Source of the DNA: Eubacteriales bacterium
GTDB taxonomy: Bacteria > Bacillota > Clostridia > Oscillospirales > CAG-272
Reading direction: 5' to 3'
Length of the DNA stretch: 64,000 nt
NCBI GenBank assembly: GCA_045658965.1
Contig: JAZOVZ010000078.1
Coordinates: 1,252-65,251 of the forward strand
This document shows, piece after piece, positions 19,477-56,965 of the stretch. The position numbers and the translations under genes are program-made. Position 1 is the first letter of the stretch, and each line of letters starts with the position of its first letter. Under the pieces are notes generated by a model that saw only the letters and a program-made list of their open reading frames with translations, was not told where the DNA came from and did not search any database.

Positions 19477-19525
19477 AATAAACAGCTCCCGATGGATTTC
19501 GAATCTATCGGGAGCGTTGTTTATT
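19477..19525. terminator. bidirectional terminator between convergent genes
   Basis: AAACAGCTCCCGAT...ATCGGGAGCgTTGTTT long stem flanked by A and T runs. Confidence 0.75.
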
Positions 19526-19970
19526 TAATTTTTCTCACACGCACATCATTCAATATATCATTGTGCTGCTTGCAGAACAATTCGGGCACATTGTCCAATC
19601 CGAAATATTTGAGCTCCATCGTTTCTTGTTGATCGCAAAAGAGTTCTCCTCCTGTTGCTGTAAGCTCATATGCAATCAATATGCTTTGGAATTTGTCTCC
19701 ATTGCGGCATTCCACGTCAAAATCCGTGTATATCCCGATCAATTCTCCGACCTCAACGTCCAAACCGGTTTCTTCCTTGACCTCGCGCACGGCTGCCATT
19801 TGCGGCGTCTCGCCCAATTCGACAGTGCCACCGGGAAAGCCCCATTGATCACAATCGCCACGACGCTGCAGCAGCACCTCTCCATCACTGTTGAAAATGC
19901 AACCACCCGCGTGCACCAACATGATTTTCTCATGTCCGACTTTACTTCTAATCCACTGAATGTAATTCAT
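19521..19970 (-). CDS. NUDIX hydrolase
   Basis: Nudix box [27 protein letters not shown]. Confidence 0.9.
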
Positions 19971-19973
19971 ATT

Positions 19974-20792
19974 TTACCTCATTTCATCATCCGCCGTATA
20001 AAAGCAATCAAATTGCCATCTGATCGGGTTTTCGTAAATGTATTTGGCGATTTGTTCATAATCCTCGCGGTTGCGGATAATGTGGTCGTGGAATCCACGT
20101 TGCCATATGGTTGAATCTCCAAATCGTTTGTGAATCTCTTTCGAGGCATTCATTTTGATATATCCAACCATTTTCGAAATCACTGATCGACCACGTAGGG
20201 GCGATTCACGAATCGCCCGCGCATCCATGGTATCCGTAATCACAATAATCAAATGAATATGATTGGGCATAATTACATAACTATCCACAAAAGCAGAATA
20301 ATTATCGGGAATATGGCTTATTACCCCGGCAATAATTTTCCCGTATTCGGTTAATTGAATGGGGGATTCTTGTGTTGTCCCAACAACATGAAGGGCGACA
20401 TTCTCCGCGGGCGATTCGTGAATCGCCCCTACGGCGTTGTGGGGATTGGTTTCGGCGGGCGATTCGTGAATCGCCCCTACGGTGTTGCGAGGATTGGTTT
20501 CCGCGGGCGATTCGTGAATCGCCCCTACGGCGTTGCGGGGATTGGTTTCGGCGGGCGATTCGTGAATCGCCCCTACGGTGTTGTGGGGATTGGTTTCGGC
20601 GGGCGATTCGTGAATCGCCCCTACGGTGTTGCGGGGATTGGTTTCCGCGGGCGATTCGTGAATCGCCCCTACAACACGCGATAGGGTGCATTTTTTTCGA
20701 TGCGTACATATGGTAATGAAATACGCTCCCGGGCTGCTATAATCGAAATCCTTAAGACGTAATCTTTTACGGATCGGCAATTTGTTCTCCAT
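19974..20792 (-). CDS. REP-associated tyrosine transposase-like (IS200/Y1 HUH family) protein with an internal 6x16-aa tandem insertion
   Basis: N-terminal FDYSSPGAYFITICT, HUH motif MPNHIHLII and C-terminal YIYENP tyrosine motif. VGAIHESPAETNP(R/H)N(T/A) is repeated six times in frame. Confidence 0.8.
   Translation of the reverse strand: MENKLPIRKRLRLKDFDYSSPGAYFITICTHRKKCTLSRVVGAIHESPAETNPRNTVGAIHESPAETNPHNTVGAIHESPAETNPRNAVGAIHESPAETNPRNTVGAIHESPAETNPHNAVGAIHESPAENVALHVVGTTQESPIQLTEYGKIIAGVISHIPDNYSAFVDSYVIMPNHIHLIIVITDTMDARAIRESPLRGRSVISKMVGYIKMNASKEIHKRFGDSTIWQRGFHDHIIRNREDYEQIAKYIYENPIRWQFDCFYTADDEMR
20195..20220. repeat. REP-like palindrome inside the RAYT-like gene
   Basis: GTAGGGGCGATTCacGAATCGCCCGC, with 8-bp arms GGCGATTC/GAATCGCC. 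It encodes AIRESPL on the minus strand. Confidence 0.8.
20404..20671. repeat. 48-bp tandem repeat, 6 copies, each containing a REP-like palindrome GGGCGATTCgtGAATCGCCCCTAC
   Basis: Palindromes start at about 20409, 20457, 20505, 20553, 20601 and 20649, an exact 48-nt period. They lie in frame within the CDS. Confidence 0.95.
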
Positions 20793-20796
20793 TTGC

Positions 20797-22062
20797 TCAC
20801 CCTTTAATCAACCGATACTCCACCGTAAACGCCTCGTCGTTGGCGTTCTGGATGCGGTACAGGACGGCGTCGCCCTTATCAAGGGTGACCTCGATGCGGT
20901 CGGTGCTATCGGCTACGACGTACTGGCAGCCGTCCACTTTAGACACCTCGTACAGGCGGTAACTGCCATTCAGGGGCAGACTAAACGATTGCGCGAGCTC
21001 ATAATCGCGGTTGAGGATCATGATATAGCCGTTGCCGTAATCGTCCTCAAACTCGGCAACCGATACGCGCTTGGGCAATTTATCCGCCAGGTACGCGCTG
21101 TCCTTCTCGGTCTGATGCATTTCTGTAAACGCCGCAAAACCCGTGTCAAGGGTTTGGTCGTGTATGACGCGCCTCGACGAGAGTGCCATCAGCGTGCCGC
21201 CCAGGTTGCGGAACTCCTCGTGGATGACCTTCTGATCCTCAAACGACCATTCCTTATTGCCGTCCTGATCGATGATCGAGCCCACCGCCGAGAAATGCTG
21301 CAACGCCTTGCATCCGTACAGGGTGGCGGCATACATCATGCTGCGGATCATGGGGAAGGTGAAATACCCCGCCTTATGCAGATCCACGCCCTGATAGTAA
21401 AACCACAAGGGCAGCCCGTACTTCTCGCCTAAGAACTTCATACAGCCAAGGTCAAGCCACATTTTGGAGTCGTCCAACTGCTTTTCAAGTGTGTAGCCCG
21501 GCAAGCCCACGGGATAATAATCCAGCGACAGAATGGGCGGGTTGATGGTGGTTACGTACCGCTCGAGGTAAGCGGCAAACGTGCCGCTCTCCCATGTGTC
21601 GTCGGGGTTATAGCTGGGAATCGCTACCGTAAAGGGCAACAGATCGGGGGCTTCGCGCTCGCACTCATCGGTCAAGGCCCGCGCCGCCTCCAGCTGGTCA
21701 TCCTTCCACGGCTCATCCCAAATGTAATAGCCGATCAATCTCTTATACGCGCGCTTTTCGCGAATGACCTCGGACAAGGCATCGCTCTCGCAACGGCGAT
21801 ACTGCTGCATGCCGCCGTAGCGCGAAAGGTCTTGGAAAATGAGATCCAGCCCCTCCTGCTCGCAGTAAATGACCGCCTCGTCCGCCTGCTCGTGCGTTGC
21901 CCAGCCTATCTCAACCGTATTAAAGCCCGCGTCCTTGCAGTTGCGCAGGCACTTGCGCATATCACCCGCACGCGCAGAGAAATTAGAAAGGATGAAATGA
22001 TCCTGCTTCCATGCGCGGCTCTTGTTTCCAAGCGGATATCTTGCAAAAATTTTATGTTCCAT
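20797..22062 (-). CDS. TIM-barrel glycoside-hydrolase-like protein (clan GH-A-like, family uncertain)
   Basis: 421 aa with NTVEIGW and YYIWDEPW (candidate acid/base Glu in a DEP/NEP-type motif). Last gene of the GRE operon. Confidence 0.55.
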   Translation of the reverse strand: MEHKIFARYPLGNKSRAWKQDHFILSNFSARAGDMRKCLRNCKDAGFNTVEIGWATHEQADEAVIYCEQEGLDLIFQDLSRYGGMQQYRRCESDALSEVIREKRAYKRLIGYYIWDEPWKDDQLEAARALTDECEREAPDLLPFTVAIPSYNPDDTWESGTFAAYLERYVTTINPPILSLDYYPVGLPGYTLEKQLDDSKMWLDLGCMKFLGEKYGLPLWFYYQGVDLHKAGYFTFPMIRSMMYAATLYGCKALQHFSAVGSIIDQDGNKEWSFEDQKVIHEEFRNLGGTLMALSSRRVIHDQTLDTGFAAFTEMHQTEKDSAYLADKLPKRVSVAEFEDDYGNGYIMILNRDYELAQSFSLPLNGSYRLYEVSKVDGCQYVVADSTDRIEVTLDKGDAVLYRIQNANDEAFTVEYRLIKG

Positions 22063-34103: not shown

Positions 34104-34128
34104 ACAATTTCATCACATAAACAAACAA

Positions 34129-34158
34129 GGGAGTTACCTACGTAGGTAGCTCCCTTTT
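34129..34158. terminator. bidirectional terminator
   Basis: GGGAGttACCTACGTAGGTagCTCCC followed by TTTT, preceded by an A-rich tract. Confidence 0.7.
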
Positions 34159-34190: not shown

Positions 34191-34288
34191 TGTAGGGGAG
34201 GGGTTTCCCCTCCCGCGAATTTGGATTCCGACACCCAAACGGATAAGCAATGCCGGTACCAACAGGAGGCGAAACGCCTCCCCTACAG
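34191..34288. repeat. inverted pair of GTAGGGG-type REP palindromes
   Basis: CTGTAGGGGAGGGGTTTCCCCTCC at 34190-34213 and GGAGGCGAAACGCCTCCCCTACAG at 34265-34288. Confidence 0.85.
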
Positions 34289-39850: not shown

Positions 39851-40062
39851 GCAGTTATATTCGCCTTTGGCGAGTGATATGCACAAGTGCGTGGTATTGC
39901 CTTCGGCAGTGATATGCGCTTCGCGCGTTAAGCATACAAGGCGAATATAATATCACTGCAACCGGCGGGAGCAATATCACTACGAGCGATGCGAGTAATA
40001 TCACGCCGAGCTGTGCAAGGCATATCACCTTGATTGCATATGTGACCACAAATGCAGAGCTT
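39851..40062. repeat. hairpin-plus-GTGATAT/ATATCAC word array with two-fold symmetry
   Basis: GTGATAT at 39873 and 39908, with degenerate GTGGTAT at 39890. ATATCAC at 39949, 39973, 39997 and 40021. Variable short hairpins lie between words. The outer/central inverted repeat is TATATTCGCC/GGCGAATATA. Confidence 0.85.
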
Positions 40063-44639: not shown

Positions 44640-44757
44640 GCCGTAGGTGCTGGCGATCAATGATCGCCCCTACGGCTGTTTTTGTTTGGGTTTTACGTAT
44701 TAAAACCTCAACATAGACACTTGGAGGGGGGGTCAGTGATCGCCAGCGCCTACGACA
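44640..44757. repeat. two GTAGG-type REP-like palindromes
   Basis: CCGTAGGTGCTGGCGATCAaTGATCGCCCCTACGG at 44642-44676 and a half-related GGGGGGTCAgTGATCGCCAGCGCCTAC at about 44728-44754. Confidence 0.75.
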
Positions 44758-47821: not shown

Positions 47822-48009
47822 GCTTTTGAGGGTGATATTTTTGCTTTGCAAAAGTGATATTCTTATCCTTGTAGGGACAGGCGTCCTCGACTGTCCGCAC
47901 GGCAAAGTGATATTGCCTACGGCAGTGATATTTTTGCTTTGCAAAAGTGATATTTGCGCGATGCGCAAGTGATATTGCGGCTTTGCCGCAGTTTGACGCT
48001 GCGCGTCAA
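47822..48009. repeat. unidirectional hairpin-plus-GTGATAT array (6 words) with an embedded GTAGGG REP
   Basis: GTGATAT at 47832, 47854, 47907, 47925, 47947 and 47969. Hairpins include TTTTGCtttGCAAAA (twice), TTGCGCgatGCGCAA and TGCGGCtttGCCGCA. The REP GTAGGGACAGGCGTCCTCGACTGTCC lies at about 47871-47896. The last hairpin covers the stop codon of the trpB-like gene. Confidence 0.85.
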
Positions 48010-55694: not shown

Positions 55695-56912
55695 TTACTC
55701 CTTTACTGCGTTGTACAGAATGCGCTCAACGATGTCCACGACACCGTCCAAGGACTCAATCGACAAAAATTCAAATCTGGAGTGGAAGTTCTCACCGCCC
55801 GTGCACAGATTGGGGCAAGGCAGACCCATAAAGGAAAGTCTTGCACCGTCCGTACCGCCACGGATCGGCACCACGATGGGTGTAATGCCAAGCTGCTCCA
55901 TGGCAACCTTGGCGCGCTCCACGATATACATGTGGTTATCAATGATCTCCTTCATGTTGTAGTAGGAGTCCTTCATGGAAAGCGTGCAGCTGCCTGCACC
56001 AAAGCGCGCGTTGATCTCGTCGGCAGCCGCCTGCATGACCTGCTTTTTCTCTTCAAACAGCGCACGGTCATGATCGCGGATGATGTAGACAAGCTGTGCG
56101 TGCTCGCAGTCGCCCTGCATATCGCACAAATGGAAGAATCCCTCATATCCCTCGGTCTTAGCGGGGATCTGCTCTGCGGGCAGAAGAGCATTGAACGCCA
56201 TTGCCATGAGCTGCGCGTTCTTCATCTTATCCTTGGCAGAACCGGGATGGATGGACACGCCAGCAAACTTGACCACAGCGCCTGCCGCGTTGAAGTTTTC
56301 GTATTCCAGCTCGCCAAGAGGTCCGCCGTCAACGGTGTAAGCATAATCCGCACCGAATTTCTCCACGTCAAAGTGGTCGGCACCTCTGCCGATCTCCTCG
56401 TCGGGCGTAAAGCAGATCTTGACCGTACCGTGCTCTGCATCACTTGCCAAGAGTCTTTCCACCACCGAAACGATAGCGGCAACGCCCGCCTTATCATCCG
56501 CGCCCAGCAGCGTGGTGCCGTCGGTGACGATCAGATGCTGCCCTACGTAATGCTGCAGGTTGGGATAATCCGCAACCGTCATATAAATGCCCTTTTCCTC
56601 GTTCAGGCAAATATCACCGCCCTTGTACTCGACGATGCGTGCTGCGATGGGCGCGTCCGCGCAAGCGTCCGAGGTATCCACGTGCGCCACAAGTCCGATC
56701 ACGGGACATGCCTTATCGGTATTTGCGGGCAGCGTTGCGTACAGGTATCCTTTATCGTCAAGCTCCACGTCACTAAGACCCAGCGACATCAGCTCTGCCG
56801 CCAGCGCAAGGCTGAGCACGATCTGCTTTTCCGAGCTGGGCACGGTCTCGGAGCTCTCGTCCGACATGGTGGGGTATGCGACGTATTTCAAAAATCTTTC
56901 ATAGGGTTTCAT
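55695..56912 (-). CDS. pepT: peptidase T (tripeptide aminopeptidase, M20B)
   Basis: MKPYERFLKYVAYPTMSDE N-terminus, HVDT, GADDKAG, DEEIG. Confidence 0.92.
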   Translation of the reverse strand: MKPYERFLKYVAYPTMSDESSETVPSSEKQIVLSLALAAELMSLGLSDVELDDKGYLYATLPANTDKACPVIGLVAHVDTSDACADAPIAARIVEYKGGDICLNEEKGIYMTVADYPNLQHYVGQHLIVTDGTTLLGADDKAGVAAIVSVVERLLASDAEHGTVKICFTPDEEIGRGADHFDVEKFGADYAYTVDGGPLGELEYENFNAAGAVVKFAGVSIHPGSAKDKMKNAQLMAMAFNALLPAEQIPAKTEGYEGFFHLCDMQGDCEHAQLVYIIRDHDRALFEEKKQVMQAAADEINARFGAGSCTLSMKDSYYNMKEIIDNHMYIVERAKVAMEQLGITPIVVPIRGGTDGARLSFMGLPCPNLCTGGENFHSRFEFLSIESLDGVVDIVERILYNAVKE

Positions 56913-56937: not shown

Positions 56938-56965
56938 CCGTAGGGGCGTGCATCGCACGTCCGCT
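56938..56965. repeat. GTAGGGG-type REP-like palindrome between the pepT RBS and its promoter region
   Basis: CCGTAGGGGCGTGCAtcGCACGTCCGC. Confidence 0.7.

Follow-up and report, generated by a model that had tools for sequence, protein, structure and literature searches.

We analyzed a 64,000-nucleotide stretch of DNA, here called the window, from a Eubacteriales bacterium (lineage CAG-272 of the Oscillospirales; contig JAZOVZ010000078.1 of assembly GCA_045658965.1), and in particular a gene on its minus strand (19974..20792) whose product resembles the transposases associated with repetitive extragenic palindromes (REPs), known as REP-associated tyrosine transposases (RAYTs) or TnpAREP. The gene is an intact open reading frame (ORF) of 272 amino acids; in the public annotation it seems to begin at a later start codon, which would make the product 268 amino acids long (P0127). 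Within it lie an array of six head-to-tail 48-bp units (20385..20672, minus strand; residues 41-136), each made of a 24-nt GTAG-hairpin REP and a 24-nt spacer, a decayed REP next to the array (20361..20384, minus strand), and a further REP in the part encoding the enzyme core (20195..20218, GTAG on the plus strand). An earlier note on this DNA had described the gene as RAYT/IS200-like and as carrying tandem in-frame copies of its own REP-like palindrome.

The RAYT gene and its REP copies

The assignment to the RAYT/IS200-like HUH genes is borne out by the motifs of the ORF, by its alignment to the E. coli TnpAREP structure 4ER8 and by structure comparison with Foldseek. The homologue alignment shows the motifs NHIH, WQ and YIYENP, so that the hallmarks HIH and YIYENP singled out previously are confirmed. 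The codons of the HUH motif (N177-H178-I179-H180; 20253..20264, minus strand) lie between the two REP sites and correspond to invariant alignment columns; H178 and H180 are invariant in 65 sequences and fall within strand 178-185 of the AlphaFold model. The presumed catalytic tyrosine, Y251 of YIYENP (residues 251-256; codon at 20040..20042, minus strand), also occupies an invariant column and is aligned to Y115 of 4ER8, the only solved relative by sequence. In this alignment the GTAG-contacting residues W94, Q95, H101 and R104 of 4ER8 are kept together with the tyrosine, and E100 is replaced by D, a replacement reported for some TnpAREP subclasses (PMC6006769). The Y-x3-NP arrangement is the signature of class 2 TnpA-Y1 enzymes (PMC6006769). 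An AlphaFold2 model made from the 65-sequence alignment had a predicted local distance difference test score (pLDDT) of 85-95 in the core, and its best Foldseek match was 4er8_A, TnpAREP bound to REP (E = 1.4e-4, target template modeling score 0.50, root mean square deviation 3.1 Å, 111 columns), followed by the TnpA proteins of IS200, IS608 and ISDra2.

The 272-amino-acid protein scored 32.9 bits against Pfam Y1_Tnp and 73.4 bits against NCBIfam REP_Tyr_transpos (NF047646), which does not reach the equivalog cut-off of 80 for that model. The NF047646 score was 74.0 bits with the repeats collapsed and 70.8 bits for the homologue P0021. Since three REP-bearing loci of a broad RAYT group drawn from many phyla (described below) likewise fell under 80, at 59-70 bits, we judge this model to be narrow for the RAYT branch of the window gene. 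Matches to Pfam Bflower_2 (22 bits, cut-off 38) and TIGR rad3 were rejected as sub-threshold and driven by the repeats, and a search of Rfam with positions 19500-21300 matched no family at E <= 1.

The RAYT gene is enclosed by a NUDIX gene and a 421-amino-acid ORF with gaps of 3-4 bp (19970-19974 and 20792-20797), which leave no space for the flanking REPs of a classical REPtron. A syntenic ortholog from another Clostridia metagenome-assembled genome (MAG), L081, is arranged alike, with the same RAYT-NUDIX-acetyltransferase neighborhood and flanks of 83-88% nucleotide identity. The ratio of nonsynonymous to synonymous substitution (dN/dS) between the two genes, with the array excluded, is 0.12, which indicates that the RAYT protein is under purifying selection. 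Judged from its sequence, the gene probably encodes a functional RAYT/TnpAREP of a gut Clostridia bacterium, closest to subclass 2.4, which was defined by Quentin, Siguier, Chandler & Fichant 2018 and equals Bertels group 4 (PMC6006769).

Tandem Repeats Finder reported the array at 20407-20672 with a period of 48 bp, 5.5 copies, 94% matches and 0 indels. The six in-frame 48-bp repeats of the earlier note are thus upheld, with coordinates that had been right to within a few bases and an in-frame extent of 20385-20672. Every unit opens with the identical 24-mer GTAGGGGCGATTCACGAATCGCCC (coding strand), made of GTAG and a perfect hairpin with a 9-bp stem, which as single-stranded DNA folds at -8.7 kcal/mol (z = -3.0). 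The first copy lies at 20649..20672, the second to fifth were read in the sequence at 20601..20624, 20553..20576, 20505..20528 and 20457..20480, and the sixth lies at 20409..20432, all on the minus strand. The units encode VGAIHESPAETNP(R/H)N(T/A), with the exception of the sixth, which encodes VGAIHESPAENVALHV; the unit of this copy, whose spacer reads AENVALHV, has its ortholog in the last unit of the three-unit relative L081. The stem, GTAG plus GGGCGATTC/GAATCGCCC, fits the 5' GT[AG]G foot and three initial G-C pairs of subclass 2.4 REPs, and the gene's own REP can be written GTAG-GGGCGATTCACGAATCGCCC. The palindrome GGGCGATTCnnGAATCGCCC was observed 7 times in the window versus 0.05 expected, all 7 within the RAYT gene. 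Among the six units, 0 of 24 REP sites vary versus 4 of 24 spacer sites, numbers so small that no significance is claimed for the difference, and the pattern of substitutions fits duplication of a three-unit block. The hairpins were also considered as intrinsic terminators and rejected, as no unit has a T-run after it.

The decayed REP, GTTGGGACAACACAAGAATCCCCC, stands at the ancestral position after β1, where it encodes VGTTQESP; 7 of its 24 positions depart from the intact REP, and the hairpin is gone (z = -0.1). In the alignment it falls on the lone VGAIHESP of the 175-amino-acid homologues, and the distance from it to the end of the core REP is 190 nt, the mode in relatives being 193 nt. 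Both the spacing and the alignment bear out the suggestion that a seventh, degenerate copy marks the position of the ancestral template. The eighth palindrome, placed in the core, is found at 20195-20218 and codes for AIRESPLR, 10 residues past HuH in the loop that follows the HUH strand; because its GTAG is on the plus strand, this copy is inverted relative to the array.

In the AlphaFold model residues 46-143 have a pLDDT of ~33 and no secondary structure, and the core-REP peptide (residues 191-198) has a pLDDT below 50. The array is accordingly placed by this prediction in a disordered, exposed surface loop. The RNA of the region is also predicted to be highly structured (z = -8.5), and the minimum free energy fold of this one sequence includes a long-range duplex of an array copy with the core copy.

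An inverted REP pair in gut Clostridia homologues

A homologue search in which 8000 word-sharing candidates were scored gave 4736 proteins at E <= 0.001, and the DNA of 80 species-level relatives (41-78% identity) provided 73 full-length genes for analysis. The best homologues are ~175 amino acids long, come from MAGs of gut Clostridia, Oscillospiraceae and Acutalibacteraceae, and have a single VGAIHESP behind β1 and a single RAIRESPL behind the HUH strand. This usual length, with a single copy at the site, agrees with the claim that the palindrome expanded in frame inside the enzyme gene. The array had been taken for an insertion behind the N-terminal strand; its position after β1 stands, but the site is not a fresh one, being a conserved REP site across the Clostridia clade.

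In 64 of these 73 genes the HUH motif is preceded by a GTAG-hairpin on the coding strand and followed by another on the opposite strand, and the span of the two is most often 193 nt. The stems of these intragenic pairs can be sorted into 14 REP types. Identity between the two copies of one gene is 93%, with 27 of 64 pairs perfect, versus 57% for copies from different genes, and switches of REP type hit both sites together. L008, L010 and L015 show compensatory stem changes (GCAATTC/GAATTGC), and in L003, L011 and L022 the two copies have changed in parallel. In a comparison of 18 genes that share the REP type of the window gene and have a mean protein identity of 56%, codons at positions with the same residue were 93.5% identical in the hairpins versus 46% elsewhere and 37% for the same set of amino acids. 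The peptides encoded at the REP site are wholly unlike between types (VGAIHESP, VGEGSPLP, VGRGLAPA, VGTGVLDCP and others), with only the residues dictated by GTAGG and CCC in common. What is conserved is therefore the pair of DNA hairpins and not the peptide.

The complete difference of these peptides between REP types bears on the possibility that the repeats serve the protein itself, as a hypervariable or multivalent loop that acts, for example, as a spacer or an interaction module. Such a role would suit an in-frame repeat of variable copy number in a gene that is under purifying selection overall, but in addition to the unlike peptides, the loop is predicted to be disordered, most members of the family have a single copy, and the Bflower_2 match is below its cut-off and driven by the repeats. 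We consider it highly improbable.

A broad set of RAYT loci was compared with the Clostridia genes. It consists of 73 loci from many phyla, retrieved with a consensus probe, the evidence being drawn from the real loci alone; pairwise BLASTP gives the window protein 33-37% identity to members of this group (E about 1e-35). REPs were found only after HuH in 59 of these 73 loci, 45 with both orientations and 14 with a single copy, which reproduces the in-frame insertions published for subclass 2.4 (PMC6006769), and there was no true case of REPs straddling the motif. Two apparent cases (L114 and L134) were rejected, since upstream REPs had been captured by over-extended ORFs. Clusters of in-frame REPs occur within the RAYT genes of several loci in this set (such as L094, L132 and L149). 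Separately, the C-terminal part of a RAYT from a Nitrospirae MAG (L110) contains RGDSHC four times, ending RGDSRIAPT, an in-frame repeat that abuts a REP at the 3' end of the gene.

The conservation of the pair could also mean that the embedded REPs are selected cis elements, either sites at which the RAYT regulates or marks its own gene or master copies through which the enzyme and its REP type are inherited together, and that the array multiplies such sites and tunes that function. Among the 73 species, 64 have the same two positions filled, at protein identities as low as 41% and with span and orientation conserved, and the frozen synonymous sites, the compensatory changes and the joint switching of both sites among 14 types would all be expected of such elements, as would the strongly structured RNA with its predicted duplex between array and core. 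Loss of one copy is nevertheless tolerated, since L013 and L016 are without the copy after β1 and P0102 is without the core-REP peptide. In addition, the REPs of the wider family both lie after HUH, and therefore no single geometry is required, and in the window gene itself the ancestral copy has decayed. A selected role in cis is, in our estimation, rather unlikely, although it is the strongest of the alternatives to the explanation proposed below.

Two further features of the family were recorded. Three homologues (P0003, P0011 and P0013) have an extra insertion of ~25 amino acids (RAIEFRLRRNISPL...) in the core-REP loop. In three other genes (L004, L024 and L069) an early stop breaks the frame, and both intragenic REPs are still perfect and at the usual spacing.

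Copy number of the array and dispersal of the REP

Copy number, which the earlier note had thought might be variable, differs among related assemblies. Within a 90%-identity cluster, the decayed copy is accompanied by two units in P0125, three in P0001, P0121, P0126 and P0128, four in P0124 and six in P0127, the window gene with its later start. The ortholog L081 has three units, of which the last (AENVALHV) is orthologous to that of the window gene, while the other spacers read ETD[SL]RN[VI] in L081 and ETNP[RH]N[TA] in the window gene. The array behaves like a variable number tandem repeat (VNTR), that is, a lineage-specific, unstable expansion.

It might be argued that the six copies arose in the assembly of a short-read MAG, because six units are seen in one assembly only and 288 bp of nearly identical units are difficult for an assembler. 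Neither the 272- nor the 268-amino-acid product was found as an exact match in an index of public contigs, the shorter form being listed only as a cluster member (P0127). The units, however, can be told apart by substitutions whose order is not periodic, close relatives assembled independently contain two, three or four units with spacer variants of their own, and arrays are present in other lineages too, so that we give an artifact very little credence.

In those other lineages the same site has been duplicated independently, with units of 18, 42, 54, 57, 60 and 63 bp and with differing boundaries. The lineage with the 42-bp unit ranges from 204 to 238 amino acids, its shortest member having three repeat units, and in P0015 the duplication begins inside the hairpin. 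Such variable unit boundaries suggest slippage or template switching at the hairpin rather than site-specific cleavage. They also bear on a route in which the enzyme built the array, by HUH cleavage and strand transfer at adjacent REPs, as proposed for clusters of REPs and bacterial interspersed mosaic elements (BIMEs). According to work on E. coli TnpAREP as cited in PMC6006769, RAYTs cleave and rejoin single-stranded DNA beside REPs, and REPs are clustered inside other RAYT genes, for example the three mentioned above. A further locus, L027 (2723-3085), encodes a RAYT homologue of 120 amino acids that is without the whole inter-REP segment, including HUH, and in which an in-frame double-foot palindrome, GTAGGGGCGATTCACGAATCGCCCCTAC, is left; this looks like a precise loss between two REPs. 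The L027 deletion is also possible by slippage between the direct-repeat half-sites of two palindromes, the unit lengths (18-63 bp) and boundaries vary by lineage, and two 24-nt direct repeats, once present, suffice for slippage. Construction of the array by the enzyme therefore appears improbable to us. Of the three options that had been offered for the array (a hypervariable loop, a self-regulatory structure or amplification of REPs by slippage), the best fit is slippage that amplified the REP within a loop able to tolerate it, and a regulatory role of the nucleic acid is a less likely possibility.

The repeated element is a genuine dispersed REP. In 119 stretches sampled from species-representative genomes, at least 146 exact copies of the 24-mer were counted; for 132 of them no RAYT coding sequence lies within 450 nt, and their flanks are unrelated, some being in other phyla. 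The copies are depleted in long open frames: frames of 150 amino acids or more run across 49% of the copies listed, versus 96% of random positions. The flanks of the homologues contained 63 further GTAGGG-hairpins, of which 20 match the stem of the internal copies of the neighboring gene, often at less than 250 nt.

Within the 64-kb window we found no extragenic copy of the gene's own REP, and other RAYT paralogues, sought in the window to account for the other REP types described next, were likewise not found, the gene being present in one copy. The earlier note had treated the repeated palindrome as the presumed substrate hairpin of the enzyme, its own REP. The grammar of a REP, a 5' GTAG foot and a GC-rich hairpin, is indeed present, but the pairing of this REP with this enzyme is presumed, there being no extragenic copy in the window.

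The window does contain five intergenic elements that had been said to share the palindrome grammar of the gene, and GTAG plus a hairpin is present at all five, between ORFs; their stems, however, are unlike that of the gene and place them in other REP types. At 34192..34214 (plus strand) GTAGGGGAGGGGTTTCCCCTCCC is identical to the intragenic REP of the RAYT homologue L065, and its inverted partner, GTAGGGGAGGCGTTTCGCCTCC, lies at 34265..34286 (minus strand). The element at 44652..44673 (minus strand), GTAGGGGCGATCATTGATCGCC, has the stem type of the intragenic REP of L061, and that at 47871..47896 (plus strand), GTAGGGACAGGCGTCCTCGACTGTCC, recurs unchanged as the intragenic REP of L048 and of L064. 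The fifth, at ~56940..56962 (plus strand), GTAGGGGCGTGCATCGCACGTCC, is a weaker GTAG-hairpin with one stem mismatch, located upstream of the start of a minus-strand gene (55695..56912).

Some additional repeats were noted in the window. Positions 34192-34286 hold two different REP types as an inverted pair in one intergenic region, GTAG feet outward and ~50 nt apart, with a separate 16-nt palindrome just upstream (34127-34156). The 9-mer AGTGATATT has 7 copies in the window versus 0.28 expected, in two clusters at 39949-39981 (minus strand) and 47853-47976 (plus strand). The first lies inside a 24-bp tandem repeat (39948-40011), and the second comprises five copies, mostly ~20 bp apart, around the 47871 REP and overlaps a 22-bp tandem repeat (47924-47976). 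These clusters look like an iteron or operator array.

Known systems and a proposed explanation

REPs within tnpAREP genes that leave the frame intact were described for subclass 2.4 as "a remarkable and unique feature" (PMC6006769), and in-frame intragenic GTAG REPs are known from unrelated genes (Di Nocera et al. 2013, PMC3733652). The general phenomenon in subclass 2.4 has therefore been known since 2018. According to the same description (PMC6006769), members of this subclass have the motifs NH[IFV]H, WQ and YIxNNP, their REPs have a GTAG foot and a GGG/CCC stem base and include double-foot forms, and the insertions generally lie between HuH and Y, vary in length through short DNA repeats and were modeled as peripheral to the active site. 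The window gene resembles them in NHIH and WQ, in a GTAG foot on a stem beginning with three G-C pairs, in an in-frame REP in the loop that joins the HuH strand to the next helix, and in a length that varies through short DNA repeats in an insertion predicted to be peripheral to the active site. It differs in several respects: it shares with 64 of the 73 gut Clostridia relatives a second REP after β1, so that the inverted pair brackets the HuH segment; its expanded array sits after β1; its tyrosine motif is YIYENP and not YIxNNP, E taking the place of a consensus N; and it is without flanking extragenic REPs. In the literature searched we found no description of this clade-wide architecture of an inverted pair bracketing the HuH-coding segment, of quantified conservation at the DNA level with concerted change of the two copies, or of a VNTR-like array at the site after β1.

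Other systems are further removed. E. coli TnpAREP, which belongs to subclass 2.2 with DHLH, YIHYNP and long bulged REPs (PMC6006769), shares the HUH-Y1 fold, the GTAG-recognition residues, the catalytic tyrosine and GTAG-footed hairpins with the window protein, but its REPs are extragenic and flank the gene as a REPtron. The IS200/IS605 TnpA proteins are also HUH-Y1 enzymes that recognize DNA hairpins near their own gene. They have the class 1 signature Y-x3-Q and belong to multicopy insertion sequences with hairpins outside the ORF, whereas the window gene has Y-x3-NP and one copy in the window, and its protein scored 20.7 bits against NCBIfam transpos_IS200 (cut-off 55). In the nomenclature of PMC3733652, inverted copies of the same type with GTAG feet outward, as in REP doublets forming hairpins (REPINs; Bertels & Rainey 2011), are a head-to-head (HH) dimer, which the pair in the window gene resembles, and the array corresponds to a head-to-tail (HT) cluster; REPs lying in frame inside other genes are known here as well. 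A REPIN is an inverted doublet that is itself dispersed in many copies; the doublet of the window gene, at most a candidate for dispersal or mobility as a unit, has a spacer of ~145 nt of essential coding sequence.

The likeness to REPINs raises the idea that the RAYT gene is itself REPIN-like, in that the enzyme would act on the pair bracketing the HUH segment and make it an excisable or convertible catalytic cassette. The double-foot palindrome of L027 matches the route to double-foot REPs suggested in PMC6006769 and keeps this idea alive, but we hold it to be an improbable one. If it were true, the pair could be a self-limiting switch, or a master copy that seeds the REP type of the genome and keeps it matched with the enzyme; the array would multiply entry sites, and L027 would be an excision product that also shows how double-foot REPs could arise naturally from RAYT genes.

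The explanation that we favor, and consider probable as a whole, is that of an embedded REP pair kept at the DNA level with an array driven by slippage in a tolerated loop. The RAYT genes of this clade embed the REP in two loops, with a coding-strand copy behind β1 and its inverted counterpart behind the HUH strand, and this pair, which brackets the HUH-coding segment, is kept as DNA rather than as protein. The embedded copies would probably be handled like the other REPs of the genome, being bound by the RAYT and/or homogenized with the dispersed pool, and the pair may persist because both loops tolerate any peptide. In the lineage of the window, the copy after β1 together with a 24-nt spacer was duplicated head-to-tail, and copy number would now shift through slippage during replication or through unequal recombination of the 24-nt direct repeats, with only multiple-of-three lengths surviving as intact genes. 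The original copy at the ancestral position has decayed, while the newer upstream copies keep perfect hairpins. This account supposes that the enzyme acts on these hairpins, that slippage was the mechanism of expansion, and that the array itself has no required function in the protein.

Several points weigh against it. Conservation at the DNA level could mean a selected function in cis, such as autoregulation or a seeding copy, and not passive homogenization. With no extragenic copy in the window, the match of REP and enzyme in the source genome is extrapolated from other genomes. The six-unit form comes from a single assembly, and the 288-bp array exceeds a typical short read. The 24-nt spacer is without clear homology to the ancestral downstream codons, and the identity of the REPs beside four variable spacer sites is suggestive only.

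These observations address the questions of how RAYTs and REPs stay matched and how REPs get copied. With two REPs per gene at fixed positions, 14 types and concerted change, the gut Clostridia clade is a large and easily sampled natural covariation set, which allows the specificity determinants of the protein to be mapped against REP sequence and the action of the embedded hairpins in cis to be tested by synonymous recoding. The variable array is a practical strain marker and a warning for gene callers and short-read assemblies. Even if the embedded REPs are merely passive passengers, they would still be a clear example of mobile palindromes creating in-frame, disordered protein loops.

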